Shown: positions 8,827 through 59,290, numbered from the stretch's first letter. The stretch is DNA of 64,000 nucleotides from an uncultured Chloroflexia bacterium (GCA_963708015.1 OY970185.1:211984-275983); one strand, 5' to 3'. Notes: generated by a model from the sequence alone, not told the origin. Translations and numbers: made by a program.

Positions 8827-9399
8827 TCAAGGGGTCAGCGTTCGAGAGCGGGCCTCGGCAATTGCCACGATGTCGACCAGGGCGCGCTCGATCTCGGACG
8901 CACGGTCCGCCTCGAGGGCGGAGACCATTCCCGGGATGAGCTCCGCCCGTGAGCGGCCATTGACGAAGACGCAGTAGCGGAAGCCGAAGCGGGCTTCGTA
9001 GGCCTGGTTCAAGCGCTCCAGCTCAGCCGCGACCGCACCGGCCGCGTCAACCGCGTCTGCCGGGTCGGCGGCATCGGGCGACTCGGCCGGCAGTCCGGTC
9101 TCCGCCTCGGCTGAGCCGTAGCCCTGCTCGCGGAACGACATCGCGGAGACGCTGGCCGGCGGCGCACCCAGTCGGGGATGGGCGTCGATCAACTCGAGCT
9201 GGGCAGCTTCGGGCATCGCCTTGGCGATCTCGAGCGCGGCCGGCCAGAGGGCCTCGTAACCGGCGAACGGCCGGCGCGCCGCGAGCAACCCGAGGAACGT
9301 GGGCGCGTTCTCGAAGAGTGGCCCGACGACGCCGGCGAATTCGTCAGCCGGCAGGCCGTTGAGGGTCGCGATCGGCGGCACGGTCCGATCCGCCGACAT
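8827..9399 (-). CDS. uraD: OHCU decarboxylase (2-oxo-4-hydroxy-4-carboxy-5-ureidoimidazoline decarboxylase)
   Basis: 190 aa; shows the IDAHPRLG signature and ...YEARFGFRYCVFVNGRS.... It overlaps the HIU hydrolase by one nucleotide. Confidence 0.8.
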   Translation of the reverse strand: MSADRTVPPIATLNGLPADEFAGVVGPLFENAPTFLGLLAARRPFAGYEALWPAALEIAKAMPEAAQLELIDAHPRLGAPPASVSAMSFREQGYGSAEAETGLPAESPDAADPADAVDAAGAVAAELERLNQAYEARFGFRYCVFVNGRSRAELIPGMVSALEADRASEIERALVDIVAIAEARSRTLTP

Positions 9400-9752
9400 C
9401 AGCTACCGAGGTAGGTCGACAGTCCGAAGGCGGTGAGCAGGAGCGGCACGTGGTAGCTGCGGTCGATGTCGATCACCCGCAGGTCGAGCGCGATCGCCTG
9501 GAACAGGGGGCTGCGTTCGCCCGTTTCGAAGCGGAGCCGGTAGGTCCCGGCGACGAGCGGCCGCCCAAGCAGGTCCGCCACCCGGCCATCCGAATCGGTC
9601 ACGGCCGAGCCGATCGGGACCTCGTGGCCGTCCGGTCCGACGAGGGCCAGGCGGATCGTGATGCCCGCGGCCGGCGCTCCAAGGCCCGTGTCCAGGACGT
9701 GGCTCGAGATCGTCGGGACCCGATTGGCCACGCTATCCTCCGCGTATGGCAC
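9399..9752 (-). CDS. uraH: hydroxyisourate hydrolase (transthyretin-like)
   Basis: 117 aa; ISSHVLDTGLGAPAAG...TYRLRFETG...YHVPLLLTAFGLSTYLGS. The C-terminal YxGS tetrapeptide is typical of HIUases. Confidence 0.85.
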   Translation of the reverse strand: MPYAEDSVANRVPTISSHVLDTGLGAPAAGITIRLALVGPDGHEVPIGSAVTDSDGRVADLLGRPLVAGTYRLRFETGERSPLFQAIALDLRVIDIDRSYHVPLLLTAFGLSTYLGS

Positions 9753-10192
9753 GACTCCAGATCGAGGTTGGCGACCTCCACTTTAGCGCTCGCTGGGAGC
9801 CTGCCGCGCCCCGCACGATCGAGGCGATCCGGCGGATGCTGCCGATCCAGGCGTCGCTGATCCACTGTCGCTGGAGCGGCGAGTCGACCTGGATCCCGTA
9901 CGGCGACCTGCGACCCGGGATCGACTACGAGAACCACACCTCGCATCCGGCCCCGGGCCAGCTCGCGCTCTACCCAGGCGGGATCAGCGAGTGCGAGATC
10001 TTCTTCCCGTACGGCGCCTGCACGACGAGCTCGAAGGTCGGCCAGCTCGCCGCGAACCACTTCGCCACGATCGAGCCCGACGTGGCTGACGGGGCTTCGA
10101 ACGCGCAAGGCTGGGCCGATCGCCTGCGCGAGGTCGGGCGGCGCTGCCTGTGGCAGGGCGCTCAGCAGATCACGATCCGCGAGGTCGACTGA
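9746..10192 (+). CDS. DUF3830 family (cyclophilin-like fold) protein
   Basis: 148 aa (MARLQIEVGDLHFSARWE...). It is divergent from uraH and lies immediately upstream of the allantoinase. Confidence 0.6.
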   Translation: MARLQIEVGDLHFSARWEPAAPRTIEAIRRMLPIQASLIHCRWSGESTWIPYGDLRPGIDYENHTSHPAPGQLALYPGGISECEIFFPYGACTTSSKVGQLAANHFATIEPDVADGASNAQGWADRLREVGRRCLWQGAQQITIREVD

Positions 10193-10197
10193 CCGGC

Positions 10198-11613
10198 GTG
10201 TTCGGGCCCGGCGGCTCGAGCGTTGAACTCCTCGTCCGGGGCGGGACGATCGTTACGCCAAGTGGCTCTCGCCGGGCCGACCTGGCGGTCGCAGGCGGCC
10301 GAATCAGTGCGATCGAACCCAACCTCGCCGGGCTGGCGGCCAACGCCCGGGAGGTCGTCGACGCGACCGGCCTCCTCGTCCTGCCGGGCATGGTCGACGT
10401 CCACACCCACACCCGCGTTGCGAGCGACGCCGAGCCCGATCGCTTCTTCCAGGACTCGGTTGCGGCGGCCTTCGGTGGGACGACCACGTTCCTGGCCTTC
10501 AACAATCCCGGCACGGGGTCGTCACCTGCGGCCGAGCGATCCCTCGTTGCCGGCCTGGCCGAATGGCGGGCTGCGACGAGCTCTGATTCGGCGGTCGACT
10601 ACGCGGTCAGCCTGGCCGTGAGCGGCCGGATGGAGGATCCGATCGCCGAGCTACCGGTGATCGTCGATGACGGCGTCCCGACCGCCAAGGCGTTCATGGT
10701 CTTCGACTTCCGGCTCGACGACGAGCGCCTGCGTCAGGCGATCGCGACGATGGGCCGGCGCGGGGGTCGGCTCGAGGTCCACTGCGAGGACCCGCTCATC
10801 ATCGACACCGAGGTCGCGGCGGCCCTGGCCCGGGGCGATACGGCGCCGCGCTTCCACGCCTCGTCCCGGCCGGCCCGAGCCGAGGCGATCGCGACGGCTC
10901 GGGCGATGGACTTCGCGGAGGCCGCGGATGCGCCGGTCCACGTCGTCCATCTCTCCTCGGCCGGCGCACTCGAGGCCATCCGGGCGGCCAAAGCCCGCGG
11001 CGTCCGCGCCTCGGCCGAGACCTGTCCCCACTACCTGGCCCTGACCGACGCCCGCTACCTCGATCCCGACGACCGGGAGGTCGCCAAGGTCGTCATCTCG
11101 CCGCCGCTCCGCTCCGCCGCGGATCGAGATGCGATGTGGGCCGGGCTGGCCGACGGCACGCTCGACCTGGTCGCAACCGACCACGTCCCGGATCGGGGCG
11201 CGGTCGAGAAACGGGTCGAGGGCGTCCCGTTCGACCGGATCAGCAACGGGGCGCCGGGGATCGAGACCCTGCTCGCGATCGCCTGGTCGGAGGGCGTGGC
11301 CCGCGGCAGGATCAGCCCCGAGCGCCTGGTCGAGCTGCTCGCCGCCGAGCCGGCTCGCCTGTTCGGACTCGGCTCGAAGGGCGTCCTGGAGCCAGGCCGC
11401 GACGCGGACTTCGTCCTGTTCGATCCCGCCGCCCGACGGACGATTCGGGCTGTCGAACTCCATCACACCTCGGACTACACTGCGTACGAGGGCCTGGCGG
11501 TGAGCGGAGCTGTCCGATCGGTCTTCGTCCGGGGCCGAGCCGTGATCCGCGACGGCCTGTTCGTCGGCCAGCGCGGCTACGGCCGGTTCGTCGAGCGGCG
11601 GTTGGGCGACTGA
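10198..11613 (+). CDS. allB: allantoinase / dihydropyrimidinase-family cyclic amidohydrolase
   Basis: The HxH motif VDVHTHTR, the carboxylated-Lys region AKAFMVF, and HVVHLSS / ATDHVP are present. The GTG at 10198 directly follows the DUF3830 stop. The ORF-track start at 10150 would overlap DUF3830 by 43 nt. Confidence 0.8.
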   Translation: MFGPGGSSVELLVRGGTIVTPSGSRRADLAVAGGRISAIEPNLAGLAANAREVVDATGLLVLPGMVDVHTHTRVASDAEPDRFFQDSVAAAFGGTTTFLAFNNPGTGSSPAAERSLVAGLAEWRAATSSDSAVDYAVSLAVSGRMEDPIAELPVIVDDGVPTAKAFMVFDFRLDDERLRQAIATMGRRGGRLEVHCEDPLIIDTEVAAALARGDTAPRFHASSRPARAEAIATARAMDFAEAADAPVHVVHLSSAGALEAIRAAKARGVRASAETCPHYLALTDARYLDPDDREVAKVVISPPLRSAADRDAMWAGLADGTLDLVATDHVPDRGAVEKRVEGVPFDRISNGAPGIETLLAIAWSEGVARGRISPERLVELLAAEPARLFGLGSKGVLEPGRDADFVLFDPAARRTIRAVELHHTSDYTAYEGLAVSGAVRSVFVRGRAVIRDGLFVGQRGYGRFVERRLGD

Positions 11614-11623: not shown

Positions 11624-12691
11624 TTACTTCGGATCGGCCTCGATCGTGCCGCTCACGAGCCCCTGGCTGTCCTCGGTCAGGCTCATCCGGATCGACCAGA
11701 CCGAGCCGCTCGACGCACCCTGGCAGGTCGCGCTGAGGCCGCTGTCAGTCAGGCCCTCGATCGGGCCGGTGCAGGTGTCGCCGTTCGGTGCGAGCAAGGA
11801 CATCGTCGCTCCGCTGATCTCCAATCGGCCGCCCCGGACCGATGGGAACCTCAGGGTCAGGCGGTCCCCGCTCGAGGCGAGCACAGCCGTCATCGCGACC
11901 GATCCGTCGTCGGCCTGTTGAAGCTGTCCCGAGATCGAGTCCGAGAACGGCTGCCGCTGTGGAGCTGTGCTGGGTGCCGCCGATGGCTGGACCGGGCCAT
12001 CCGATGGGCTGGCGCCGGCCGCGTCCAGGATCGCGCTGCCGGAGCCGCGGCCATCATTGGCGATCGCATTCCAGCCCGGCTGGAGGGGACCGAGCCAGGC
12101 CCACATGCCGATCGCCATGGCGGCGGTCGTCGCAAGCACCGCCGGAATGGGGTGCGTCCGCTCTTCCGTCGGTGGAAAGGCCCGGACGAGGATCAGCGCC
12201 CCGACCAGGACGACGCTCCCTGCATAGACCGCGATGGCCCACGGCGTTCGAACGTCGCTTCCGGTGGCAATCCCATGGACGAGAGCAAGCCCGAAGATCG
12301 CAAACGAGAGCTCGTGGAAGCGACGCCACCACGTGTATCCGACATACGGTCGAACGCGCTCGCTCAGGTAGACCGCGATCAGCAGGTACGCCGCCACGAT
12401 CCCGAGGGCGATCCACAGCGGCCGGTAGTGGCTGACGAACGGGACGAGGACTTCGACCGGCGAGAATCCGATGAACGGATCGATCGCGACCATCAGCGTG
12501 TGGATGGCCGTGAAGACGAGGGCAAGAAGCGTGACGAAACGGTGGAGCTCGGTCGTGATGAACCGGGTCCAGCGCGGCGATCGCCATTTCAGGCTGACGA
12601 CGAGGCCGATGGCGACCGAGGCGGTCAGCAGCCCGTAGGCCATGAAGCCACCGGCCCGAGCGATCTCCCAGGTCAACGTCGAGGGAATCAC
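11624..12691 (-). CDS. ferric-reductase-like transmembrane (FRD) protein with a C-terminal putative flavinylated (FMN-bind-like) domain
   Basis: There are six hydrophobic helices with conserved His pairs (HRFVTLLALVFTAIHTL; FHELSFAIFGLALVHGIATG). An extracytoplasmic C-terminal domain contains RLEISGATMS, an SGAT flavinylation-type motif. The GTG at 12691 overlaps the ApbE stop (GTGA); an alternative ATG lies at 12643. The N-terminal ~110 aa of ORF 11624..13024 are wrong-frame read-through. Confidence 0.7.
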   Translation of the reverse strand: MIPSTLTWEIARAGGFMAYGLLTASVAIGLVVSLKWRSPRWTRFITTELHRFVTLLALVFTAIHTLMVAIDPFIGFSPVEVLVPFVSHYRPLWIALGIVAAYLLIAVYLSERVRPYVGYTWWRRFHELSFAIFGLALVHGIATGSDVRTPWAIAVYAGSVVLVGALILVRAFPPTEERTHPIPAVLATTAAMAIGMWAWLGPLQPGWNAIANDGRGSGSAILDAAGASPSDGPVQPSAAPSTAPQRQPFSDSISGQLQQADDGSVAMTAVLASSGDRLTLRFPSVRGGRLEISGATMSLLAPNGDTCTGPIEGLTDSGLSATCQGASSGSVWSIRMSLTEDSQGLVSGTIEADPK

Positions 12692-13644
12692 GCCACGCTC
12701 CACGTGCCGGCCGGCTGCTCGGTCCCGTCGGGCGCAATGAACATGCCGGCGAGGCCGTGCCGCTCGAGGAAGCGGGCACCGTCGAGCGGGCCGAGAAGGA
12801 ACGCTGCCTTGGCCGCCGCCTCGGCCTGGGTGCAGTTCGGCGCAGCGACCGAGGCGGACCAGAGCGCGGACGTGGACGGCATCCCCGTCCGCGGATCGAT
12901 CAGGTGATGTCGGAGAGCAGCACCCTGGCTCCAGCGCCGCCTGGACGTGCTCGATGTGGCGATCGCCCCGAACCGCAACGAGACGGTCCGGTCCTGCCGG
13001 GGACTTTCGATCGCGATCGACCACGAGTCGGAACCGGCGGGCAGGCCCAGGACTGCGAGATCGCCCCCCGCGTCAACGGCGGCCGTCTGGACTCCGCGTG
13101 CCGCCAACTGGGCGATTGCGGCGTCCACGGCCATCCCCTTGACCAGGCCGCCGAGGTCAATCCCGACGCCGGCCGGCAGCTCGACGATCCGGCCAGCGTC
13201 GAGTAGCCGGAGGTCGCGCCAGCCGCCGGTCTTGGCCGGCGGGCCGGTCATATCCGGGACCTGGGGGCGAGCCAGCACGGCACTGAAGTCCCGGTCGTAG
13301 CCGATCGACTCGAGCGAGGCCAGGAGCGTCGGATCGAACAGGCCATCGGTTGCCTGGGCGGCCTGCCTGGCCGTGGCAAGGACCCTGAACATGAGGTCAC
13401 TGACGACGCACGGCCGCCCGGCCGCCGCGTTCAACCCGCTCAGCTCGCTGTCGGGATCGAACCGGGAGAACCGCCCTTCCCAGTCCCGGAAGAGCGTCTC
13501 GACCGCTCCGGCCTCGGCCCGGCGCGAACCGGGCAGGAGGACCGAAACGCTCGTGCCCATCGCCTCGAAGGTGGCGCGGACGAGATCGCCCGGCGTCAGG
13601 AGCTGCTGGGCCGTCGGATCCCGTCGGGCCAACGGCGAACCCAT
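12688..13644 (-). CDS. apbE: FAD:protein FMN transferase (ApbE family)
   Basis: Shows ...FEAMGTSVSV..., LGGLVKGMAVD and the ApbE fold signature. The start was chosen at the internal Met (MGSPLARRDP) so that the gene does not overlap the upstream gene. Confidence 0.85.
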   Translation of the reverse strand: MGSPLARRDPTAQQLLTPGDLVRATFEAMGTSVSVLLPGSRRAEAGAVETLFRDWEGRFSRFDPDSELSGLNAAAGRPCVVSDLMFRVLATARQAAQATDGLFDPTLLASLESIGYDRDFSAVLARPQVPDMTGPPAKTGGWRDLRLLDAGRIVELPAGVGIDLGGLVKGMAVDAAIAQLAARGVQTAAVDAGGDLAVLGLPAGSDSWSIAIESPRQDRTVSLRFGAIATSSTSRRRWSQGAALRHHLIDPRTGMPSTSALWSASVAAPNCTQAEAAAKAAFLLGPLDGARFLERHGLAGMFIAPDGTEQPAGTWSVA

Positions 13645-13648
13645 CCCG

Positions 13649-13939
13649 TCAGGATCCGCCACTTGAGAGCATCGGCTGGCCGCCACCCAGAATGAGCGGA
13701 GGCTGGGCAACCGGCCCTACCACGCCGCCAGTCCCGGGCTGGCCGAAGAAGTCGCCCTGGGGCAGGACCAGCCCCGGCGTCGTTCCGTTCGCGTTCGACG
13801 GATCGTTGGCCGCAGGCGCATGCGCAGTCACCCCGACGACGTTGAACACAGCCAGGCCGAGGAATGCCCCGAAGGCCACAATCGAGGCTGCCGCGATCCG
13901 GCGGCGGGCGGCAGCCAGGAACGTGCGCGGGTCGGACAT
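13649..13939 (-). CDS. small membrane-anchored hypothetical protein (Gly/Pro-rich ectodomain)
   Basis: The internal Met of ORF 13649..14161 gives MSDPRTFLAAARRRIAAASIVAFGAFLGLAVFNVV (a single TM) followed by about 60 aa rich in G, P and Q. The start coordinate is uncertain by a base or two. Confidence 0.4.
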   Translation of the reverse strand: MSDPRTFLAAARRRIAAASIVAFGAFLGLAVFNVVGVTAHAPAANDPSNANGTTPGLVLPQGDFFGQPGTGGVVGPVAQPPLILGGGQPMLSSGGS

Positions 13940-14111
13940 CGGCGTCTTGATCGGCTCGGGCGCCTGCGGGACAGCCCGATACGTTTGGCCGCGCCGATCG
14001 TTCCCGACCCGCTGGATTCGACGCGCGCGCACTCTCTGATCCTGAGTTGACATCGAACCCGACGCTACGGTCGCGGGATGAGAAGAACCTGAAAATCGGA
14101 GCGAAGGCCCC

Positions 14112-15179
14112 TCATTGGAGCGAAACGGTGATGATCGAGGCAAGCGGCGCGACCGTCTCACCGCCGATCAGGTAGCCGACACCGTCGACGACGACTGCGG
14201 CCGCATCGGCGACCGGGTAGGGCAGGCGGCCGGCATTCGCGACCGCGCCAGTCGTGAGGTTGAGCAGCCAGAGCTCCGCCTGGGCTCGACCGGCGGACCG
14301 GCCGCCGGCGATCAGGACCCGATTCCCAATCACCAAGCCAGACCCATCGGAGATGGGTCGCGGGAGGTGGCCGACGATCCGAACGACACCGGACGACACG
14401 TCGACGCCCTGGATCGCCGAAGTCGCGCCGGAGGCAGTGCTCCCGCCGGCGACGTAGATCACCCCATCGAGGACAGCCACGGCCGGATAGCGGACCGCCA
14501 CGGGCAGCCGCGCGACGAGGCGAAACTGGTGACCGTCGGTCGTGGCCAGGACGCGACCGTCTGGTTGACCGGGCGTGCCTCCGCCGACCAGCACGATTTC
14601 GCTGCCGGTGGCCACGGCGACCAGGTCGGCTCGCGCCGCCGGCAACTGGCCGACAGCGATGGCTGTCCCGCCCGGGTCAACCCGCTGGACCGTCGAACCG
14701 GCGACGGTCCGACCGCCGCCGAAGACGTACGCCTGGCCGTCGAGTGCGGCACCGCCTGCGTCATGGACGGCTACGGCCAGCGAGCCGGCCCTTGAGATCC
14801 GGGCAGACCCGGGATCGAGCTCGAGGATCGAGCCCGTGGTCCCACCCGTTGACAGGCCGCCGCAGATCAGGACAACCGATCCGAGGTCGATTGCCACAGC
14901 TCGACTGCGGGCGGCCGGCATCCGGATCGCCGAGAGGGCGACTCGCACCGTTGGCGGAGCCCCGGACGCGTTCGGAACGGGCGCGCCAGCGCTCGCGGAC
15001 GGCGCCTCGGCCGATGCCGGGGGAAACGAGGCCGCGCCCGTCGCCGGGGAAAGCGAGGCCGCACCTGTCGGGGGGAAATCGGATGGTTGGGGTTGGCCGC
15101 AGCCAACGCTGATCAGAACGACGGCGCCGAGAGCAGCGGCGAGCCGCCGCCCACGGTTGCCCGACCCGGCCTGAGTCAA
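14112..15179 (-). CDS. Kelch-repeat beta-propeller protein, secreted/lipoprotein-like
   Basis: Repeated double-Gly Kelch motifs (YVFGGG, VLVGGG, IYVAGG, VLIAGG, GYLIGGE). A signal/lipobox-like LAAALGAVVLISVGCG is present. The TTG at 15179 overlaps the NHL stop (TTGA). Confidence 0.7.
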   Translation of the reverse strand: MTQAGSGNRGRRLAAALGAVVLISVGCGQPQPSDFPPTGAASLSPATGAASFPPASAEAPSASAGAPVPNASGAPPTVRVALSAIRMPAARSRAVAIDLGSVVLICGGLSTGGTTGSILELDPGSARISRAGSLAVAVHDAGGAALDGQAYVFGGGRTVAGSTVQRVDPGGTAIAVGQLPAARADLVAVATGSEIVLVGGGTPGQPDGRVLATTDGHQFRLVARLPVAVRYPAVAVLDGVIYVAGGSTASGATSAIQGVDVSSGVVRIVGHLPRPISDGSGLVIGNRVLIAGGRSAGRAQAELWLLNLTTGAVANAGRLPYPVADAAAVVVDGVGYLIGGETVAPLASIITVSLQ

Positions 15180-16390
15180 AGGCCCTGGATCATGCCGGGC
15201 GGGAGCAGGTTGACCCCGTCCGGGATGTTCAAGCGATCCGGGCCGCGACCGGCCAGCCCGGTCCGCCCGTACTGCCACAGGATCTTGCCGGTGATCGGAT
15301 TCAGGAAGATCACCCGATGCCGGAGATCGTCGTTGAGGACAAGCGTGCCGTCCGCCAGGGGAACGGCCAGGCTTGGATGGTCGAGCCGGCCGACCCCTGT
15401 CCGTGGGCCATACCTCCAGACAAGGTGGCCCGTTGGCGTTACGGCCACGACGGCCCCCGGATTCGAGTAGTCCGCGACGACGACATCGCCGTGTGAGTCG
15501 AGCTGCGCGTCGGACGGATAGGCGGTCGGGACATGGATGTTGAACACGACCTTGCCCGCGGCATTGAGGCGGACAACGCGCGAGCCCTTGATCTCGGTGA
15601 TCAGGATCCCGCCGTCAGGGAGCGGGGTGTCCCCGTTGGGCTCGTTGTAGGCGTAGGGCGGGGCGTCACGGCACACGCCCGTGTGGCCCCACGTCCGAAC
15701 GACGTGCTTGTCCGGGGCGATCTCGATGATCCGGCAATTACGGATGTCGGCCACGGTCACGTTTCCGTTGGCCAGGGGATAGGCGTCATCCGGGGTGTTG
15801 AGGAAGCCCGGGGCTGAACCCGTCCGGTTGTAGTGCCCGTACTGCCAGGTGATCCGCTTCGTGGCGATGTCGATCCGGACGAGGACCTGATGCATCTCCT
15901 CACTGGCCATGATCGTCTTGCCGTCCGGGGCGACGAACGCATCGTCGGCGCTGAACCCCTGCCCGGGGCTCAGGCTGCCGGCGACCGGAAAGCGCCACAG
16001 GACCTGGGCCTGGCTATTGACGATCAGGAGGCGCCCGTTGCCTCGGTCGGCGATCAGGAGGTCACCGGCGAAGACGCCATGGGTCACCGGAGTGGGAGCA
16101 GGGGTCGTAGCGGGCGTCGGGGCTAGCGTCGGGTCCAGTGCGGCGATGGACGGAGCGGTGCTCGCGGAAGGTGCGAGCGACGGGAACGCTCCCGAGGCTG
16201 GCGGACTGGTAGTCGCCAGGGCCTCTGGGTTGGGCTGGGTCGAGCTCGCGGCGGCTCCGGTCATGGCGATCGCCATGAGGATCAGCCCGACTGCAACCGC
16301 AGGCAGGGCACTGGCGAGGCGTGATCCTCCCCCTCCCGAACCGGACCGATGGGCCATCGCCTGCCGGCGGGATCTCGATCCGTTCGTCAC
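15176..16390 (-). CDS. NHL-repeat beta-propeller protein with an N-terminal membrane anchor
   Basis: Five or six NHL-like blades (ADRGNGRLLIV, ADIRNCRIIEI, TEIKGSRVVRL, ADYSNPGAVVAV, NDDLRHRVIFL). The hydrophobic N-terminus is AVAVGLILMAIAMTGAAA. The ATG forms an ATGA overlap with the GatD stop. Confidence 0.7.
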   Translation of the reverse strand: MTNGSRSRRQAMAHRSGSGGGGSRLASALPAVAVGLILMAIAMTGAAASSTQPNPEALATTSPPASGAFPSLAPSASTAPSIAALDPTLAPTPATTPAPTPVTHGVFAGDLLIADRGNGRLLIVNSQAQVLWRFPVAGSLSPGQGFSADDAFVAPDGKTIMASEEMHQVLVRIDIATKRITWQYGHYNRTGSAPGFLNTPDDAYPLANGNVTVADIRNCRIIEIAPDKHVVRTWGHTGVCRDAPPYAYNEPNGDTPLPDGGILITEIKGSRVVRLNAAGKVVFNIHVPTAYPSDAQLDSHGDVVVADYSNPGAVVAVTPTGHLVWRYGPRTGVGRLDHPSLAVPLADGTLVLNDDLRHRVIFLNPITGKILWQYGRTGLAGRGPDRLNIPDGVNLLPPGMIQGL

Positions 16391-17208
16391 CCTCGACCGA
16401 GCCGGGCCGGCTCAAGGGCCGTTCGCCGCCCCCTGTTGCGGAGGGCCACATCCTCGGCAAGGTCGTGGGCGCTTTGCTCGAGGGTGTCATCGAGTTCGGT
16501 GAGTTGGATCTGTCCGCCCACCTTGCGCTCGAGGACGATTCGGATCAGGTGATCCGCGAGCCACGGATTCTTGGGTAGAACCGGGCCGTGGAGGTAGGTG
16601 GCGTAGACGTTGTCGCGACGCGCTCCTTCGGTACCATCGCGTCCATTGTTGCCCGCTCCGGCGATCACGGTCCCGAACGGCCGCAGGCCGGGGCCGAGCT
16701 CGGTCAGTCCAGAGTGGTTCTCGAAGCCCACGATCGTCTGGACGCCGTCACCAAATCCCACCTGGCAGGCAGCGTGCTGCATGAATCGTTGTCCACCTGA
16801 CCGTGTCTCGAGGTCGAGCAAGCCGATCCCTTCGATGGCCGGGCCGGTCGCCGGAATATACCGATGCCCGAGGAGCTGCAGGCCGGCGCACACGGCGAAG
16901 ACTACGACACCTCGGTCAGCAGCATCCCGCAGGGTCGGCGCCTTGATCTGGAGGTCGCGGGCGGCAATCGCCATCTCAACATCCTGACCACCCTGGAAGA
17001 AGATCAAATCGAACGACGTGAGGTTCAGCGACTCACCGACCTCTACCGGCACAATCTCGGTGGCGATCCCACGCCAGCCAGCCCGGCGTTCAATCGCGAT
17101 GACATTGCCCCCATCGCCCGCGATGTTGAGCAGGGACGGATAGAGATGGGCGATCCTGATGACCGGATAGGGTCCGCTGGGTTTGCGCCGCGGCGGACCT
17201 TCATCCAT
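16387..17208 (-). CDS. gatD: lipid II isoglutaminyl synthase glutaminase subunit (GATase-1, CobQ-like)
   Basis: Catalytic Cys in VFAVCAGLQLLG and His in YATYLHGP. It lies immediately downstream of murT. The start was set at Met9 to avoid a 32-nt overlap. Confidence 0.85.
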   Translation of the reverse strand: MDEGPPRRKPSGPYPVIRIAHLYPSLLNIAGDGGNVIAIERRAGWRGIATEIVPVEVGESLNLTSFDLIFFQGGQDVEMAIAARDLQIKAPTLRDAADRGVVVFAVCAGLQLLGHRYIPATGPAIEGIGLLDLETRSGGQRFMQHAACQVGFGDGVQTIVGFENHSGLTELGPGLRPFGTVIAGAGNNGRDGTEGARRDNVYATYLHGPVLPKNPWLADHLIRIVLERKVGGQIQLTELDDTLEQSAHDLAEDVALRNRGRRTALEPARLGRG

Positions 17209-18592
17209 CGCGCAGCGGCCCGACCCAGCCACGACGGTTCATCAGGCTCCGCAGCTCGAGGGTCGGCGTGTAGCCCGCCAGGATCGTCAGGCGCCCGCCC
17301 GGCGCGATCGAGGCAAAGGCCGCATCGAGGGCCCGGCTGGCCGAGCCGAAGACCGTGATCGATCGTGGGTCGACCCCCGCATACTTGAGCCGGTTGGCCA
17401 GGTCCCAGGCTCGTGTTCCGGTCACCGTCACGCGCTCGAGGCGAGCCGCCGCAGATTCGAAATCGACATCCCACAACCAGGCGAAGTCCTCGCCATCGAC
17501 CTTCGTGTTGCTGGCGGCGACCAGGAGCTGGCGCGGCTCGCCGGCGAAGCGGAGGGCCTGCAGCGTCGTGTTATACGACGTCGGATTCTTCACGAAGCCG
17601 AGGACGATCCGGCGGTCCCCAATGTGGGCTGTTTCAAGGCGGCCGAATGCCGGCCGCACGGCCTCCAGCGCTTCGGCGGCATGGCTCAGCGGGACGTCGA
17701 GGCCAAGCATGACCGCAAGGGCAGCCGCCACGTCATACGCGATGTGGACACCCGCCTGGGGAATCCTGAGCACGAGCTCCGACGATCCGGCCTGGACGGT
17801 CAGGCTCGTCTCGGAAGCGCCGACTCGAAGCGCCGTAACGGCGACGTCCAGGGGCGGGCGCTTCAGGCCGCAGCCCGGGCAACGGTACGAGCCAAGATGG
17901 CTGAGGTAGACCTGCTCATACACGAGATCCGAGCGGCAACGCGGGCACCGGATCGAGTCCGCCGCCCTGGTGATCCGGTCCGTGGAGTGATCCAGGTCAA
18001 GCCCAAAGGTGACCCGCCGCCCCCGTCGTTCGGAGGCCAGCGAGGCGACCACCGGGTCATCGGCGTTGACGATCCAGGCGGTGTCCAGGGGCAAGGCTCG
18101 AGCGACCGCTTCGATCGCGTCGGAGACCGCGTGAAGCTCCCCGTACCGATCGAGCTGGTCGCGGAACAAGTCAAGGACCAGAACGGCACGGGGTACCAGC
18201 TCCGGCACGACCTGGGCCAGGGCACCCTCATCGACCTCGGCGACAAGCATTCCTTCAGCCAAGCGCCCGTGCAGATCGGCGTTGTTGACGGCAAGGCTCG
18301 TCACGCCTTGAACGAGGTTGGCCCCAGCGGCATTGCTCAGGGTGACGATGCCCTCGGCTCTGAGGAGTGCCGAAACCAGACGCCCGGTGGTCGTCTTGCC
18401 GTTGCTTCCGGCGATCACGATGGCCGGGACTTTGGCTTCGCCGACCAGGGTGCTCAGGACGGTTGGCTCGATCAGCCGGGCAATCAGGCCGGGCAGCGAG
18501 GTGCCGTCGCCCTTGCCGAGTCGCCGAGCAAGCGTGCCGGCCGTCTTGCCGGCCGCGATGGCGACCGCGAGGCGCGGCTTCACGTTCGCCAC
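17201..18592 (-). CDS. murT: lipid II isoglutaminyl synthase subunit MurT (Mur-ligase family, DUF1727 C-terminal domain)
   Basis: P-loop IAGSNGKTTT, the four-Cys ribbon CPRCRSD...CPGCG, and the DUF1727 C-terminal domain. Confidence 0.9.
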   Translation of the reverse strand: MANVKPRLAVAIAAGKTAGTLARRLGKGDGTSLPGLIARLIEPTVLSTLVGEAKVPAIVIAGSNGKTTTGRLVSALLRAEGIVTLSNAAGANLVQGVTSLAVNNADLHGRLAEGMLVAEVDEGALAQVVPELVPRAVLVLDLFRDQLDRYGELHAVSDAIEAVARALPLDTAWIVNADDPVVASLASERRGRRVTFGLDLDHSTDRITRAADSIRCPRCRSDLVYEQVYLSHLGSYRCPGCGLKRPPLDVAVTALRVGASETSLTVQAGSSELVLRIPQAGVHIAYDVAAALAVMLGLDVPLSHAAEALEAVRPAFGRLETAHIGDRRIVLGFVKNPTSYNTTLQALRFAGEPRQLLVAASNTKVDGEDFAWLWDVDFESAAARLERVTVTGTRAWDLANRLKYAGVDPRSITVFGSASRALDAAFASIAPGGRLTILAGYTPTLELRSLMNRRGWVGPLRDG

Positions 18593-19121: not shown

Positions 19122-21989
<2,868 letters not shown>

Positions 21990-49887: not shown

Positions 49888-50809
49888 CCCGGTAGGAGTC
49901 GACCGTCGCCGTGATTCCTTCCTCGAACGGCACCCGGACCGCGTAGCCGAGGGCTGTGGTCGCCAAGCTGATGTCCGCCTGCGAGTGAGCGATGTCGGCC
50001 ATCCGGGCCGGCCCGAAGCGCGGCTCGGCCGATCGGCCCGCGGCGTGATTGACGGCGGCTAGGAGGTCAAGGAGCGAATACCGATTGCCACTGGCGATGT
50101 TCACCGTGATCCCGGTTGGGCTCGACTCCCTCGCCGCAAGGAGATTTGCGTCAACGACGTTGTCGACGTGGATGAAGTCACGCGAGATGTCGCCGCTGCC
50201 GTAGATGATCGGCTGCTCGCCCGCCAGGACTGCCGTCGCAAAGCGGGGCACAACCGCCGAGTACTCCTGGCTCGGATCCTGACCAGGCCCAAAGACGTTG
50301 AAATACCGCAGGGCAACTGTTTCGACGCCGTGGAGAGCCCCGAGGGTGTGGAGGTAGTGCTCGGCCGCGACTTTGCTCGCTCCGTATGGCGACACCGGGT
50401 CGGGCCGATCCACTTCGCGGCAGGGGAGCTCCTTCGGAACGCCGTAGACGGACGAAGAGCCGGCCAGGATCACCCGCCGGACTCCTTGTCGCTTGGCGGC
50501 GAGGATCGTCTCAATCGTACCCCCGACGTTGACCGCATTGGTCAGGGCCGGGTGGATCAACGATTGTGCGACCGAGGCCACGGCAGCTTGGTGAAGGATG
50601 ACCTCGCATGAATCGGCCGCCGCGTCCAGGGCGGCTGGATCGACGACGCTGCCGTGAACGATCGAGATCTGGTCAGCGAACGAATGGAGGCGCCACGCGA
50701 ACCCCGAGCTAAAGTCGTCAAGCACCCGCACGTCATCTCCCCGAGCCACAAGGCGGCGAACAAGGTGATGACCAATGAAACCAGCCCCACCGGTGACCAG
50801 AACTCTCAT
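49859..50809 (-). CDS. NAD-dependent epimerase/dehydratase (UDP-hexose / UDP-GlcNAc 4-epimerase-like)
   Basis: Contains MRVLVTGGAGFIGHHL and a YGASK catalytic dyad. Confidence 0.85.
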   Translation of the reverse strand: MRVLVTGGAGFIGHHLVRRLVARGDDVRVLDDFSSGFAWRLHSFADQISIVHGSVVDPAALDAAADSCEVILHQAAVASVAQSLIHPALTNAVNVGGTIETILAAKRQGVRRVILAGSSSVYGVPKELPCREVDRPDPVSPYGASKVAAEHYLHTLGALHGVETVALRYFNVFGPGQDPSQEYSAVVPRFATAVLAGEQPIIYGSGDISRDFIHVDNVVDANLLAARESSPTGITVNIASGNRYSLLDLLAAVNHAAGRSAEPRFGPARMADIAHSQADISLATTALGYAVRVPFEEGITATVDSYRVSPTGPTFV

Positions 50810-50939
50810 CGTTGCTCCAAAGCCCCGGGCGACTCATTCGGGCGGCGCAGGTCAGCCAGGACGGAAGCGCGTCCCGTGACGGTGTCCGATCCTCGTCCGG
50901 CGTTGCCAGGGCGCCCCATCCAACCGAGGCGAAGGCGAG

Positions 50940-52319
50940 TCAAGTCGTGCCGGCCGATCGACGCAAGACCCGCCGGGCCATCCCCAGACTGGTGTCGAAG
51001 GCGAAACGGATATCGGACAGGCGCGGGATCCAGAAGTCCGCCACCGAAGCTTGGTTTAGCCGGGCGGCGACGAAGGACAGAATGATGGCGGACAGCGAGT
51101 ATGAGATCAATGACGCCGCGGCAGCGCCGACGATCCCAAAGGAAGGGATCAGCAACAAGTTGACTGCGATGTTGACGACCAGTGACGCCACGTTGGCGTA
51201 TGACGTCACCGCGGTCATTCCAAGGCCGGCAAGGTAGCTGCTCAGGACTTTGGTCTGGCTCAATGCGACGACACCCGGCAGGATCACGAACAGCGGTGTC
51301 AGCGCCTGCTCGAAGGCCGGCAGCAAGACCCGGATCAGCACGATCGAGAAGGGCACGAGGACGATCGCCATCGCGCCCGTCAGCAGCAGTGTGACCCTGG
51401 CGACCATCGCGACCTGTCGGTCGGCGTCCTCACGGGTCGTCCCGGCCACGTGCGGGAAGAACACCGAGGAGACGGCATTCGGCAGGAAGAACACAAGCTG
51501 GGCAATCGTGACAGCCATGCTGTAGTAGCCGAGCGGTGCTGATGGGTTGGGCAGAATCCAGGCAAGGAGGTACACGTCCACCCGCAAGCTCAGGAAATTC
51601 GTCAGCGTCCCCGGGTAATACGGCAGGCCATAACCGAACAACTCGCGGTACGAAACCCCAGTTCGCCCGGGAACTGATGCACTGACCCGAACGGAGCCCA
51701 GGAAGTAGGCAAGCGTCCCGATGACGTAACACACGAAGAAGGCCCACAACGCACCGACCAGACCGAACCCAAGCACTCCAACCAGCACGATATACATCAC
51801 GACCGAACACGCGCTCTGGCCCAGGTTCACGGCCGAATACCAGCGCACTGACTGTCGTCCAAGCAGCACGCCGGTCGTAAACGTCGCGTTCAGCGCAAGC
51901 GGCAGGACCAACAAGCCCAGGATGATCTCGCTCGGATCGATCGAATCGAGGATCGTCGCCCGCAGGACCGGCAGAAGAGCAATCGTCAGAGCAAACGCCG
52001 GGCCCGCCAGGGCGACGGTCAGCAGGACCGTCTTCGTGTTGATTCCGGTCGTTTGGCCGCGGGCGGCGAAGAATCCAAAGGCCTGAGGTAGTCCGAGCTG
52101 GATGAGGACCATGATCGTGACCGGGAACAAGGTGATCAGGTAGAAGTCGCCCTTGCCCGCCGGGCCGAGGACGCGCGCGAGCAGAAAGCCGACGAGAATG
52201 CCGATCCCGGTTCCCAGGATCGAGGTGACAAAGAGCGTCAGGACCCGGTCGGAGAGGCCCTCGAGGCGGCCGGTCGCGACCGGCTCTTCAGCCCCGTTGG
52301 AAGTTCGCACCGTCGCCAT
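50940..52319 (-). CDS. wzx: oligosaccharide flippase (Wzx; MOP/polysaccharide biosynthesis protein family)
   Basis: 459 aa with about 12-14 TM helices and the typical PST-family profile. Confidence 0.8.
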   Translation of the reverse strand: MATVRTSNGAEEPVATGRLEGLSDRVLTLFVTSILGTGIGILVGFLLARVLGPAGKGDFYLITLFPVTIMVLIQLGLPQAFGFFAARGQTTGINTKTVLLTVALAGPAFALTIALLPVLRATILDSIDPSEIILGLLVLPLALNATFTTGVLLGRQSVRWYSAVNLGQSACSVVMYIVLVGVLGFGLVGALWAFFVCYVIGTLAYFLGSVRVSASVPGRTGVSYRELFGYGLPYYPGTLTNFLSLRVDVYLLAWILPNPSAPLGYYSMAVTIAQLVFFLPNAVSSVFFPHVAGTTREDADRQVAMVARVTLLLTGAMAIVLVPFSIVLIRVLLPAFEQALTPLFVILPGVVALSQTKVLSSYLAGLGMTAVTSYANVASLVVNIAVNLLLIPSFGIVGAAAASLISYSLSAIILSFVAARLNQASVADFWIPRLSDIRFAFDTSLGMARRVLRRSAGTT

Positions 52320-52444
52320 AGGTGGTGATTCTGCGTGTCGCGTTCAGCCGGCCAGTAGGTGGGTCGTCCCTCAGGAGCCCGGCGCCGCCCGAAGCATGGC
52401 GCCTCACGCGCAGCGTTGGGCCTTGTGCATTTGGCTGTAGCCGA

Positions 52445-53317
52445 TCATCTCGAGGCGTCCCGGGGGGGCTGTGTCGACCGAGCTACGAACTCGTCATCTG
52501 GCGTGCCTGCCCTGGTCGTCGTGCCGCGTGCCGCAGGCCAAGTCGGAGGCGGCGATTGCGGGCCGGCGCGTGCACGGCGCCACCAGCCTGGGACGGCGTA
52601 TGGTCCACCTTGCGGGTCCTCGGAGGCTTCGGAATCCTGAGTTGCCACGGTCTGTGAGGGTCCGTCTGGATTGGTCCGGAACCCGCCGCGCCGCTGCCAG
52701 AGATTCTCGCCCAAAAAGGCAATGCTGATCGTCAGGAAGAGGGCGATCGCCCCGCCCAAGGCGACCCTGATCACAAACCCCGGGCCGTCACGAACGGTTG
52801 GGGCTGTCGCAGGATCGACGACGGTGAGGGCGACGAGCTTCGCAACGTTGGCATCGCTCGGATTCGGTGGCGCGTACACCTGAAGGTCGGAGGCGATGGC
52901 GTTTGCGAGAGCGCTCGCCTGGGCGGGATCCCGGTCCGACACACTAATTTCGAGCAGGTTCGTACCCGCAGGAATGTGAGTGGACACGGCTTGGGTGAGG
53001 GCCAGGACGTTGGTGTTCGCGTTGGTCGAGCTGATGACCCGATCGAGGACCGGGGTGGTCGTGGCAAGCTCGGCAAATGTCGGGATCAGCGCCTGGGCGA
53101 CCTCAAGGTCACTCGTGTTGACACCGGTATTGGTGTCGGCCGGGGCAACGAGCAAGGTCACATGGGCCGTATAGGTCGGCGGCGTGATCGCGGCGACACC
53201 AACGGCAATGACCAGGCCAATTACCGTTCCACCCAGGATGAACCAACCCCAGGTGCGCACGATCGACCGGAGTCCCCGGCTAGCCGAAGGTCCGGCGGGA
53301 ATGGATTGGCTGCTCAC
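52445..53317 (-). CDS. Wzz-like polysaccharide chain-length determinant / co-polymerase (no kinase domain)
   Basis: TM1 is WGWFILGGTVIGLVIAVGVAAI. A periplasmic region of about 170 aa follows, then TM2 IRVALGGAIALFLTISIAFLGE. The tail after TM2 is low complexity. Confidence 0.6.
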   Translation of the reverse strand: MSSQSIPAGPSASRGLRSIVRTWGWFILGGTVIGLVIAVGVAAITPPTYTAHVTLLVAPADTNTGVNTSDLEVAQALIPTFAELATTTPVLDRVISSTNANTNVLALTQAVSTHIPAGTNLLEISVSDRDPAQASALANAIASDLQVYAPPNPSDANVAKLVALTVVDPATAPTVRDGPGFVIRVALGGAIALFLTISIAFLGENLWQRRGGFRTNPDGPSQTVATQDSEASEDPQGGPYAVPGWWRRARAGPQSPPPTWPAARGTTTRAGTPDDEFVARSTQPPRDASR

Positions 53318-54555
53318 TAGACGCGCACCGTATCACCGCTGGTAAGTAGGGGAACAATGGGACCTTTGTCCGCTGCCGGGAAGTCAGCCGCAATCGAGCG
53401 ATAGTGTTGCAGTAGCGCCGCCGCGTTGACATCGACGTCGTAGTCCCGCTTGACGAGCTCCTGGAGTCGAGTCGCTGCCTCGTTCGCGCTGGAGCGGTCA
53501 TCGACGAACGAGGTCAGGGCGGCCGCGACCGAAGTCGCGGAGACCTCGGGGAGCAGCCTTCCCCGGTCGCTCCCGAGGAGCTCGGGAATCCCGCCAACCG
53601 AGCTGGCGATGACTGGCAGACCCAGTGACCCGGCTTCGACAAGCACCGTGGGGAGCCCTTCGCTGTACGACGGCAGGACAAGAACGTCAGCGGCCGACAT
53701 ATAGCGAATGACGTCTCCATGCGTCTGAGCGCCACGATATTCAAGCCGTGTGGGAGCCCGTGAGTCGTCGGTGCCGTAGCCCCGCTCAGGTCCGTCGCCA
53801 ATCAGAACGCCGACCAGCGGTCCGTCGAGCCCGAGAACTGCATCGACGAACTCGCGAACCCCCTTGGCGCGCTTGAGCTCACCTACGTACAACACGACGA
53901 GGGAGCCCTGGGGTAGTCCGACTAGCGCCCGAGCCTTAGATCGTGGCAACGCCCCAGCGGCGATCGCTCGATGATCCGAGCCCAGAGGCAGATATGTCGC
54001 CCGGACTCCCGTGACTTCCCGGATCCGGTCAGCCAGGGCCTGACTCACGGCGAAGACCGCCCCAGCGCGAGCGACGGCTTCCCGCAAGTCCGACATCCGC
54101 TCCGGATGCTCGTCGGGCCAGCGATTGATGTCGCTGCCGTGGAAGGTCAGAACGTACGGAAGCGCGGCCCGCGCCGCAAGGTGCCAGGCTGCCAGGCCCG
54201 TGACCGAGTAGTGGCCGTGGATGATCCGGGCGCCCGCCCAATCGCGGCGCGCTCGCCACATCGCATCCGCAATCACACGATCGGGACGTGCCCAGGTCGG
54301 CTCCCCCGGAACGTTCACGTAGCGAGGACGAATCACGGCCACGTTTTGATCGCGAGAACGGCGGGGAGCGTGAGCGTACTCGCGCCAGCGTGGCCTGATC
54401 GCCGACAGGGGCCACGGAGCCCATGGGGTTGGTGCTGCCACGGTGACCGCTGGCCCGAGCCGGGCGATCGCCCTGGCCTGGGTCTGGTAGAACACGCCGT
54501 TCGCGGGTTGCTCGATCCATGGGTACGCCCGAGTGATCCACAGCGCGTCGGTCAT
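53317..54555 (-). CDS. glycosyltransferase family 4
   Basis: Contains the EX7E region SYSEGLPTVLVEAGSLGLPVIAS. The start at Met20 ATGA-couples to the upstream stop. Confidence 0.8.
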   Translation of the reverse strand: MTDALWITRAYPWIEQPANGVFYQTQARAIARLGPAVTVAAPTPWAPWPLSAIRPRWREYAHAPRRSRDQNVAVIRPRYVNVPGEPTWARPDRVIADAMWRARRDWAGARIIHGHYSVTGLAAWHLAARAALPYVLTFHGSDINRWPDEHPERMSDLREAVARAGAVFAVSQALADRIREVTGVRATYLPLGSDHRAIAAGALPRSKARALVGLPQGSLVVLYVGELKRAKGVREFVDAVLGLDGPLVGVLIGDGPERGYGTDDSRAPTRLEYRGAQTHGDVIRYMSAADVLVLPSYSEGLPTVLVEAGSLGLPVIASSVGGIPELLGSDRGRLLPEVSATSVAAALTSFVDDRSSANEAATRLQELVKRDYDVDVNAAALLQHYRSIAADFPAADKGPIVPLLTSGDTVRV

Positions 54556-55955: not shown

Positions 55956-56144
55956 GAATTGAACTCGCAGCGCGGACGGCCCGGATCGGACTCGGGGTCC
56001 GTCACCCGGGCCGAGTGCGACCGTTCAGAATGACCCAGGCAGTACCAGACCCGACGCATCGGTAGAGCATACGAGGAACCTCAAAAGTGGAGCCATTGGC
56101 CAAAAGTCCACAGCGGGCGCGAGTCGACGCCCTGCGTCCCGGGA

Positions 56145-58617: not shown

Positions 58618-59290
58618 GGGCCAAGGGAGCGGGGACGGCCCCGCCAGGCGGCCCGTCTGTCACGCGCGATTGCAACGGAAAGCCGATTTCATCGACGTCC
58701 TGAATCTCGCGCACGTCCGTCTTCCTCAGGACTTGGGCCAGGGTCATCCCAATAATCTGGAGATCGAGCGACAGGCTTCGATGATCGACGTACCAGACGT
58801 CCAGCGCGATCCGTTCCTGAAACGGCATCGTGTGCCGGCCATGGACGGCCGCCCAGCTGGTGATCCCGGGTCGGACGTCGTGCCGACGGTGCTCTTCGGG
58901 GGTGTAGGCAGCGAGGTACTCGAGCAGCAAGGGACGCGGCCCGACGAGGCTCATCTCACCACGGAGCACGTTCCACAGTTCGGGCAATTCGTCGAGGCTT
59001 GTAGAGCGGAGCAATGGTCCGATCCGGGTCAGTCGTGTGGCGTCGGTTCGATATTGGTCCTCACCAGGCCGTACCTCCCGCATCGTCCGGAACTTGAGGA
59101 TCGTGAATGGGCGACCGTTCAGCCCCGGCCGAGGTTGGCGGAATAGGATTGGGCGACCGGAGGTAACCAGTACGGCAACGGCGACCCACAGGAGAACCGG
59201 CGACAGGATGACAAGCCCAATAGCCGCCCCAGTCACGTCCGTGAGCCGCTTCAGGCCGGATGAACGTCCGTCGCGTAGTGATCGACTCAG
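58574..59290 (-). CDS. polyprenyl-phosphate sugar phosphotransferase (small 'bacterial sugar transferase' / WbaP-C-terminal-like priming enzyme)
   Basis: A TM helix (VTGAAIGLVILSPVLLWVAVAVLV) is followed by PGLNGRPFTILKFRTM and DELPELWNVLRGEMSLVGPRP. The start is uncertain. The ORF extends to 59578, but its first ~95 codons are not protein-like. Confidence 0.7.
   Translation of the reverse strand: MSRSLRDGRSSGLKRLTDVTGAAIGLVILSPVLLWVAVAVLVTSGRPILFRQPRPGLNGRPFTILKFRTMREVRPGEDQYRTDATRLTRIGPLLRSTSLDELPELWNVLRGEMSLVGPRPLLLEYLAAYTPEEHRRHDVRPGITSWAAVHGRHTMPFQERIALDVWYVDHRSLSLDLQIIGMTLAQVLRKTDVREIQDVDEIGFPLQSRVTDGPPGGAVPAPLAPTEPGPSSSDAGSA

Follow-up and report, generated by a model that had tools for sequence, protein, structure and literature searches.

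The window examined here, a 64 kb stretch of DNA from an uncultured Chloroflexia bacterium (OY970185.1:211984-275983; all positions are counted on the whole stretch), carries at positions 11624-18592 seven closely spaced genes, all on the minus strand. One of them is apbE, which encodes a homologue of FAD:protein FMN transferase, and the question raised by this locus is which protein, if any, the ApbE homologue serves, and whether its six neighbours belong to the same system. A first-pass annotation, made from the sequence alone, had proposed an extracytoplasmic flavinylated electron-transfer module in which the flavin site is an SGAT string in the adjacent ferric-reductase-like (FRD-like) membrane protein, functionally coupled to a MurT/GatD pair and to two beta-propeller proteins. 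Reading of the open reading frames (ORFs) confirms all seven genes at these coordinates, and the families to which that annotation assigned them hold in Pfam, where the small protein has no family. On the evidence of gene order, the seven-gene string is three independently conserved units that stand side by side in one narrow lineage. One unit is a trio consisting of a small membrane protein, apbE and the gene for the FRD-like protein. Our best explanation, to which we give slightly less than an even chance, is that this trio forms a trans-membrane electron-transfer module carrying flavin mononucleotide (FMN) on the terminal serine of the small protein. The features of the trio are as follows.

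13649-13939, minus strand: gene for the small transmembrane protein, the first gene of the trio (96 aa; an alternative ATG start at 14053 would give 134 aa)
13829-13897, minus strand: transmembrane or signal-anchor segment of the small protein (IAAASIVAFGAFLGLAVFNVVGV), located after RRR, from hydropathy
13742-13756, minus strand: GDFFG, the conserved aromatic-pair motif in the tail of the small protein
13652-13675, minus strand: C-terminal PMLSSGGS-stop of the small protein, whose final Ser is the proposed FMN site, from position counts over 49 sequences
12688-13644, minus strand: apbE, FAD:protein FMN transferase homologue (318 aa; Pfam ApbE, 196 bits)
12808-12825, minus strand: ApbE motif AEAAAK in place of ADAL(S/A)T, from alignment to 1vrm and 4xdt
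11624-12691, minus strand: gene for the FRD/MsrQ-like membrane protein, with two predicted heme sites and a C-terminal beta-barrel (355 aa; Ferric_reduct, 25.6 bits, just below the 28-bit cut-off)
12092-12691, minus strand: predicted six-helix transmembrane domain of the FRD-like protein, from the AlphaFold2 model, loop charges and invariant His residues
12542-12544 (His50), 12500-12502 (His64), 12314-12316 (His126) and 12275-12277 (His139), minus strand: predicted heme-b ligands of the FRD-like protein, all invariant
11627-11947, minus strand: eight-stranded beta-barrel of the FRD-like protein, residues 249-355, predicted to be extracytoplasmic, with a conserved Cys307/Cys323 pair
11804-11815, minus strand: SGAT, the flavinylation site proposed in the first pass, on a loop of variable length that leads into barrel strand 4

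The trio is defined by a survey of 58 genome loci that carry relatives of the FRD-like protein, plus further loci on metagenome contigs. The 58 loci are from Chloroflexota (Limnocylindria and Ktedonobacteria), with one from Thermoleophilia and one from Dormibacterota. The apbE gene is directly upstream of the FRD gene in 53 of them, the exceptions being two contig ends and three Ktedonobacter genomes, and its stop codon overlaps the FRD start codon in nearly all surveyed loci. In the window this overlap is the four nucleotides GTGA, with the FRD start most plausibly at GTG 12691, and the coupling of the two genes noticed in the first pass is thus sound. A same-strand small ORF with a like architecture precedes apbE at every locus for which sequence is available, giving 49 distinct sequences. 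Although the small membrane protein had been taken as incidental, the survey reveals it as the module's most conserved partner. More than 40 loci have the trio without either murT-gatD or the propeller pair.

A homologue search with the FRD-like protein returned 729 relatives, mainly from metagenome-assembled genomes of Candidatus Limnocylindria, and PF01794 (Ferric_reduct) is on record for most of the 120 listed; in the window protein this family covers residues 15-136. In an alignment of 31 homologues with 42-86% identity to the window protein, the pairs H50/H64 and H126/H139 (spacings of 14 and 13 residues) are invariant in all 31 sequences and fall in the predicted helices 43-70 and 119-143, which agrees with the two bis-His heme helices proposed in the first pass. 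The same arrangement, with bis-His pairs across two helices at these spacings and presumably two stacked hemes, is typical of the NOX/STEAP ferric-reductase superfamily. Unlike those proteins, the FRD-like protein lacks a cytoplasmic FAD/NADPH dehydrogenase domain and has an extra sixth helix that would bring its C terminus outside. The AlphaFold2 model contains six transmembrane helices, a disordered linker at residues 217-242 and a confident all-beta C-terminal domain. A count of loop charges finds Lys and Arg concentrated in loops 1-2, 3-4 and 5-6, which places the C-terminal domain outside the cell, and this placement agrees with its conserved Cys307/Cys323 pair. The extracytoplasmic location claimed in the first pass is therefore also what the loop charges, the cysteine pair and the modelled helices predict. 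From its family, we infer that the protein holds two hemes b and transfers electrons outward. A profile of the family compared with PDB sequences gave no meaningful match.

The first-pass annotation placed the flavin on this C-terminal domain, such that an FMN_bind-like fold would be flavinylated by ApbE on Thr296 of SGAT, as in MsrQ-FMN_bind fusions, which exist and have been modelled (PMC11334425). The literal string RLEISGATMS is indeed present, it matches [S/T]GA[S/T] at 11804-11815, and the barrel domain that carries it is predicted to be outside the cell. Moreover, every one of the 10 sequences in the clade with at least 59% identity to the window protein still has GA[TS]. However, Pfam at E<=10 finds no family in residues 198-355, FMN_bind included, and only Ferric_reduct/Ni_hydr_CYTB in the whole protein; PF04205 (FMN_bind) is absent from all 120 listed homologues of the 729. 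The annotation itself had named the lack of an FMN_bind-like fold as evidence against its proposal, and the fold that is modelled is an eight-stranded barrel. The motif also fails to persist among relatives. SGAT as such occurs only in the window protein, since the first Ser is already altered at 86% identity (NGAT), and the loop reads EGAT, DGAT, QGAT, AGAT, RGAT or EGAS elsewhere in the same clade. Below about 55% identity the Thr is replaced by Val, Leu, Ile or Gln in all relatives even though apbE still adjoins, and distant members of the alignment have GQV, GSQ, GEL, GKI or GTL at this position. In addition, when the FRD-like protein is shuffled, [ST]GA[ST] arises by chance in 11.5% of cases, and for the seven proteins taken jointly the share is 48%. 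The motif lacks a leading Asp, and the full D-x-x-[ST]-G-A-[ST] motif does not occur in any frame of the 64-kb window. We consider flavinylation of SGAT within an FMN_bind-like domain to be improbable. Conserved Ser and Thr residues on the cytoplasmic loops of the FRD-like protein were also considered as ApbE targets, and none of them is in a G-A context in the alignment.

The barrel domain, when modelled alone with 22 homologues, forms an eight-stranded antiparallel barrel (predicted local distance difference test 93.6, predicted template-modelling score 0.84). Its fold type is that of allene oxide cyclase, dirigent proteins and avidin, as well as of Diels-Alderases of the PloI4, Tsn15, PyrI4 and AbyU type. 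This fold class comprises small-ligand-binding barrels, including the phenazine-binding PodA, and it is tempting to speculate by analogy that the barrel could cradle an isoalloxazine ring or another redox ligand. A Foldseek search of the PDB with the full-length model yielded nothing at E<=0.001, only weak small-barrel matches, and was uninformative for the transmembrane domain. The possibility that the barrel is also a free-standing secreted family was examined, and the short matches that were read proved to be mostly fragments of FRD fusions.

Attention then turns to the small protein as the candidate flavin carrier. Neither Pfam at E<=10 nor NCBIfam returns anything for it, and 28 homologues called independently by gene callers in other assemblies are all labelled hypothetical, none with a Pfam family. 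The 49 sequences share a basic N terminus, which often contains DPRxF and R-(L/V)-K-R, then one hydrophobic helix, and finally a tail of 40-81 residues that is 77% Ser, Thr, Gly, Ala, Pro, Asn and Gln. Across these sequences the net charge is +3.5 over the 15 residues before the helix and -0.1 over the 15 residues after it, and from this asymmetry the N terminus is predicted to be inside and the C terminus outside. About 19-62 residues (mostly 23-35) before the C terminus there is an aromatic-pair motif that usually reads [FY]F[GANST], with (D/E)FFG as the commonest version. A regular expression matches this motif in 46 of the 49 sequences, and the other three have DPFFD in the same place.

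The tail ends in the consensus P-Φ-Φ-x-[S/G/T]-x-[G/T/A]-Ser-stop, where Φ is hydrophobic. Counting back from the stop codon, Ser occupies position -1 in 49 of 49 sequences, followed by Gly (33), Thr (10) or Ala (4) at -2, Gly (26), Arg (9), His (7) or Ser (6) at -3, and Ser (36), Gly (9) or Thr (4) at -4. Position -5 is Arg, Ser or Gln, positions -6 (Leu or Val) and -7 (Met, Val, Ile or Ala) are hydrophobic, and position -8 is Pro in 46 of 49. All 16 of the independently called homologues that were read likewise end in Ser. The last four residues resemble [S/T]GA[S/T], and the terminal Ser/Thr acceptor of the ApbE motif is present throughout (49/49). The possibility that the small protein and ApbE are one polypeptide split by a frameshift was rejected, given that the frame offset between them varies among loci and the Ser-stop is conserved.

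What is established for ApbE targets is compatible with such a site. Seven residues can be enough for the motif, which ends in the modified Ser or Thr and performs best when placed at a protein terminus. Ser can serve as the target, replacement of the motif Asp by Ala has a minor effect, and a Gly-to-Ala or Ala-to-Val change leaves about 50% of flavinylation (PMC12052999). The engineered 'flavin-tag' similarly demonstrates that ApbE needs no more than a short, unstructured peptide at a protein terminus with the modified Ser or Thr as its last residue (PMC12052999), and flavinylation motifs have been predicted on unstructured C-terminal extensions of FMN_red proteins (PMC11334425), which the tail of the small protein resembles. 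The small-protein consensus P-Φ-Φ-x-S-G-G-S differs from the D-x-x-[S/T]-G-A-[S/T] of the flavin-tag by having no Asp and Gly in place of Ala, and the putative site of modification would be at the extreme C terminus of a naturally occurring mini-protein. Judged by these comparisons, the terminal Ser appears to be a better fit for the FMN site than SGAT.

The ApbE homologue is a clear member of its family, with a PF02424 score of 196.3 bits against a cut-off of 25.6 and a match to profile positions 1-265 of 266. Its nearest PDB relatives are TM1553 and the flavin transferases of T. pallidum, V. cholerae and Listeria (E values of 1e-28 to 1e-16). The conserved triad of the V. cholerae enzyme (Vc) is Asp285-Ser241-His257 (PMC12052999). 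Across the 57-member family of the window ApbE, the ATS serine and the HH histidine are retained, and 56 of 57 members carry A-E-x-x-x-K, against A-D-A-L-(S/A)-T in ApbEs of known structure, with Glu in place of the triad Asp and Lys in place of the aligned Thr. No hydrophobic N-terminal segment, signal peptide or lipobox is evident in the protein or its in-frame upstream extensions at about 55 loci. Because it has no signal peptide, ApbE of this family is, as far as its sequence tells, cytoplasmic. The AE...K variant goes together with loss of the signal peptide in this family.

Several of these observations count against flavinylation of the terminal serine. The first is the apparent conflict between an ApbE without a signal and a tail predicted to be outside, such that flavinylation would need to precede export, an order of events for which we know of no precedent. 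The second is that the Glu and Lys substitutions mean that the activity of this ApbE may differ. The third is the motif itself, which lacks the Asp (position -7 is Met, Val, Ile or Ala), reads SGGS rather than SGAT, and has Ala at -2 in only 4 of 49 sequences, with entire clades ending in GRTS or SHGS. Also, in Ktedonobacter the small protein accompanies a short FRD that has no barrel, and apbE is not adjacent. Lastly, the GA[TS] preserved by all 10 near-clade FRD sequences makes a clade-specific site on the barrel possible. A Tat signal on the small protein was considered, because it could explain how a cytoplasmic ApbE serves a target on the outside, and was set aside: many members have R-(L/V)-K-R before the transmembrane segment, and the twin Arg is unconserved.

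Since a cytoplasmic ApbE and an outside acceptor require either modification before export or some other target or activity, another explanation must be given real weight, even though we regard it as unlikely. ApbE might flavinylate no protein of the cluster, and instead, as a cytoplasmic FAD binder whose metal site is altered, hydrolyse or present flavin at the cytoplasmic face of the FRD-like protein, analogous to the flavin reductase that feeds MsrQ, or modify a target encoded elsewhere. The small protein would then serve as a subunit with a structural or regulatory role, such as modulation of the neighbouring histidine kinase. The missing signal peptide and the AE..AK that replaces ADAL(S/A)T both speak for this explanation, and there are precedents: FAD hydrolases are found among ApbE homologues, and certain ApbEs are cytosolic, such as the second one of Klebsiella pneumoniae (PMC12052999). 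Likewise, a two-component system adjoins the trio in 19 loci, and the Ktedonobacter small protein and FRD manage without a neighbouring apbE. However, the triad Ser and His of ApbE are retained, and the overlap of the apbE stop with the FRD start nearly everywhere ties the enzyme to the module. An invariant terminal Ser in a [S/T]G[A/G][S/T]-like context beside apbE is also hard to account for in this way, and the small protein is present in 39 loci that have no adjacent two-component system.

From the observed gene content, conservation, folds and motif statistics, we infer the heme binding, topology, serine flavinylation, electron direction and acceptor of the preferred electron-transfer module as follows. 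The FRD/MsrQ-like protein would hold two hemes b between its four invariant His residues and pass electrons from the cytoplasmic face to the outer face of the membrane, with a quinol or a cytoplasmic reductase as candidate donors. Its own barrel would sit at the outer face on a flexible linker, and the small protein would be anchored there by its single N-terminal helix. ApbE would supply covalent FMN, most likely to the invariant C-terminal Ser of the small protein (...P-M-L-S-S-G-G-S-COOH) rather than to the SGAT loop, which would make this Ser a natural equivalent of the seven-residue flavin-tag that has been engineered. Once tethered, the FMN could draw electrons from the outer heme, possibly while held in the barrel, for delivery to an extracytoplasmic acceptor. 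A more specific version holds that the small protein, either anchored in the membrane or secreted, is a new class of ApbE substrate, that the signal-less Glu/Lys-variant ApbE loads FMN before export, and that the FMN docks on the two-heme FRD and its barrel. This version is possible, but we hold it only tentatively and would sooner expect one of its parts to fail.

The closest described kind of system is the 'MsrQ-like' group of flavinylation-associated systems (Méheust et al. 2021, PMC8238504; Huang et al. 2024, PMC11334425), in which a PF01794-type membrane cytochrome with two predicted heme sites is also encoded beside apbE and trans-membrane transfer to a flavinylated extracytosolic element is also proposed. 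Unlike these systems, the trio has neither PF04205 nor a NAD-binding domain, with the eight-stranded barrel and the 96-aa protein present instead, and its ApbE has no signal peptide. The operational definition used in 2021 asked for PF01794 to be encoded no more than five genes away from apbE or FMN-bind (PMC8238504), and in the window apbE overlaps the start of such a gene, a pairing that recurs in 53 of the 58 loci. The same survey retained a cluster only where ApbE or a known substrate, namely FMN-bind, DUF2271 or DUF3570, bore a signal peptide or lipidation site (PMC8238504). The window ApbE carries no such site and the three substrates are absent from its trio, and loci of this kind would presumably have been excluded by that filter. 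Our literature search found no description of the small protein-apbE-FRD trio. The best reading of what is new is therefore an FMN_bind-less variant of the MsrQ-like systems. In this sense the first-pass proposal of a flavinylation-associated electron-transfer module is supported as regards the apbE-FRD pair, and is not supported as regards its SGAT/FMN_bind site or its coupling to MurT/GatD.

In E. coli MsrPQ, for which PMC8238504 cites work by Gennaris (2015), MsrQ (YedZ) is a heme-b membrane subunit of the FRD family that passes electrons to an extracytoplasmic partner, and the two-component system HprRS (YedVW) is encoded next to it. The trio is similar in having an FRD-family membrane subunit and, in 19 of 58 loci, an OmpR-type response regulator/histidine kinase (RR/HK) pair encoded nearby. 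Unlike E. coli MsrPQ, no locus seen encodes an MsrP molybdoenzyme partner, and the E. coli MsrQ is not known to have a C-terminal barrel or an ApbE or small-protein partner.

Flavinylation is now mapped through FMN_bind, DUF2271, DUF3570 and NqrB/RnfD domains and through secreted ApbEs. If the terminal serine of the small protein does carry FMN, the range of ApbE substrates is wider than such domain-based surveys capture, and these surveys have missed a split three-component electron conduit. It would also raise the question of how flavin attached covalently inside the cytoplasm gets to the cell exterior. Few of the Limnocylindria and their Chloroflexota relatives in soil and freshwater have been cultured, and the module would furthermore offer a way into the redox biology of their cell envelope.

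The RR/HK pair that flanks the trio in 19 of the 58 genome loci is orthologous (L003, L004, L012/L064, L016, L019-L021, L024, L025, L027, L028, L030-L032, L042, L056, L057, L059, L062 and L067), with 66-88% identity among loci, which suggests regulated expression of the trio. It is located divergently upstream in Limnocylindria and downstream in Ktedonobacteria, and the window itself has no such pair. In the variant module of Ktedonobacter species (L056, L057 and L059, at about 9478-10576), the small protein, which ends in ...SGSHVS, directly precedes a 193-aa FRD that has neither the sixth helix nor the barrel. A large GT39-like membrane glycosyltransferase gene is located upstream and the RR/HK pair downstream. 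The small protein of Ktedonobacter racemifer ends in ...PPVSGSHVS-stop, and there is no apbE between its gene and that of the FRD. In three loci of another clade, a DoxX/DoxD-like membrane-protein gene is found about 400 nt downstream of the FRD gene (L015 3112-3741, L016 11504-12127 and L019 11466-12200), and in a 73%-identity relative (L001 5086-6210) a DoxD+Rieske fusion gene is located between gatD and the NHL gene. These neighbours hint at a quinone-linked partner.

The remaining question is whether the trio belongs with the four genes upstream of it, which are as follows.

17201-18592, minus strand: gene for a MurT-like Mur-ligase subunit (463 aa; Pfam MurT_C, 83 bits, and Mur_ligase_M, 48 bits)
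16387-17208, minus strand: gene for a GatD-like glutamine amidotransferase (273 aa; Pfam GATase_3, 115 bits)
15176-16390, minus strand: gene for a membrane-anchored beta-propeller of the NHL/PQQ_2 type (404 aa; Pfam PQQ_2, 39 bits, and NHL, 27 bits)
14112-15179, minus strand: gene for a Kelch beta-propeller with a lipoprotein-like signal (355 aa; several Kelch families in Pfam)

The first-pass annotation described all seven genes as linked by overlapping stop and start codons. Four of the six junctions do overlap: murT/gatD by 8 nt (ATGGATGA), where the gatD start is within the end of murT, gatD/NHL by GTGA, NHL/Kelch by TTGA, and apbE/FRD as given above. The other two are gaps, of 4 nt between the small gene and apbE, and of 58 nt or 172 nt between Kelch and the small gene, depending on whether the latter starts at ATG 14053 or ATG 13939. 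A scan of positions 11.0-19.5 kb matched no sigma-70-like promoter, terminator or Rfam element (FMN riboswitch included), and a single transcript across the seven genes is therefore compatible with the sequence.

These overlapping or near-abutting junctions and the scan would also suit a reading in which all seven genes form one cell-envelope system, with ApbE/FRD redox activity driving or controlling peptidoglycan amidation by MurT/GatD together with the propellers. The same gene order recurs in L001, L006 and L007, a 35%-identical MurT/GatD pair lies beside the module in another arrangement in L064, and NHL-Kelch is linked to the trio in two gene orders. The wider survey points the other way, and we judge such a system to be very improbable. 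The murT-gatD pair adjoins the module only in the close relatives L006, L007 and L008/L001. At 69-70% identity, L009, L010/L071, L013 and L014 lack it beside the module, as does every more distant locus. NHL-Kelch adjoins the trio only in the clade with at least 63% identity (8 loci), downstream of FRD in L012/L064 and upstream otherwise, and it occurs without apbE, FRD or murT within 8 kb in three other genomes (L068-L070). Of the neighbourhood co-occurrence of apbE, FRD, Kelch and NHL that the first pass suggested surveying, the apbE-FRD part is thus general and the NHL-Kelch part is confined to these 8 loci, and functional coupling of the module to MurT/GatD and the propellers does not find support. 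Furthermore, the MurT/GatD reaction is an ATP-dependent amidation that needs no redox input. A literal four-residue motif and operon-like overlaps can thus both mislead when read without comparative data.

In the 70%-identity relative L071, the NHL gene is immediately next to a gene for uricase-malate synthase, with no murT-gatD between them. This arrangement suggests that murT-gatD was inserted into, or deleted from, a purine-catabolism neighbourhood, and its adjacency to the module looks like a recent, lineage-specific juxtaposition. The second MurT-like gene, that of L064 (369-1808, minus strand; 35% identical to the window MurT), is accompanied by a gatD fragment and is divergently oriented relative to the trio, in the order gatD<-murT<-HK<-RR / small->apbE->FRD->NHL->Kelch. 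The FRD, NHL and ApbE proteins of this locus are 63-67% identical to those of the window.

The MurT-like protein contains a GSNGKTT P-loop and a CxxC...CxxC ribbon, and its Pfam combination of MurT_C and Mur_ligase_M, paired with a GATase_3 subunit, is that expected of MurT/GatD. As in the lipid II isoglutaminyl synthase, a Mur-ligase middle domain and MurT_C are paired with a CobQ-type amidotransferase encoded by an overlapping gene. Unlike that enzyme, the NCBIfam scores are far below the equivalog cut-offs (212 bits against 800 for MurT and 180 against 400 for GatD), so that lipid II is no more than a candidate substrate of the pair, and the adjacency to a redox module is lineage-specific.

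The NHL propeller has a transmembrane segment at residues 22-51 and more than 3300 homologues, and the N terminus of the Kelch protein is a lipoprotein-like signal (...LISVGC). Searches of PDB sequences with the two proteins returned only generic repeat matches (TRIM71 and KEAP1; for the Kelch protein, 6-bladed Kelch domains) and no functional clue. In the window lineage, the two propellers may be local partners of the trio. The NHL-Kelch pair is itself widespread, and a DMFA2_C-domain gene follows it in three of the four loci L068-L070 and L064 (not in L070), and in L069 a tatA-like gene also follows it.

The block from NHL to FRD is embedded in purine-catabolism genes both in the window (8827-11613 and 19122-21989) and in L071. 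These neighbours encode an OHCU decarboxylase, a transthyretin-type HIU hydrolase, a DUF3830 protein, an amidohydrolase and the uricase-malate synthase protein, to which L071 adds pieces of xanthine dehydrogenase. In E. coli, a transthyretin-like hiuH gene also precedes msrPQ, which may be coincidence. The uricase-malate synthase gene of the window (19122-21989, minus strand) is a 955-aa ORF consisting of a uricase domain, a Pro/Glu-rich linker (EPEPEP...) and a full malate synthase, and the same fusion is present in L071 (6578-9328), where Pfam finds Uricase, MS_N, MS_TIM-barrel and MS_C. Such a fusion would put both the opening and the closing step of carbon salvage from purine to malate into one protein. 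Finally, the last 14 kb of the window (about 50000-64000) have a G+C content of about 0.63-0.67, down from about 0.70-0.73 before, and may be a region of different origin.

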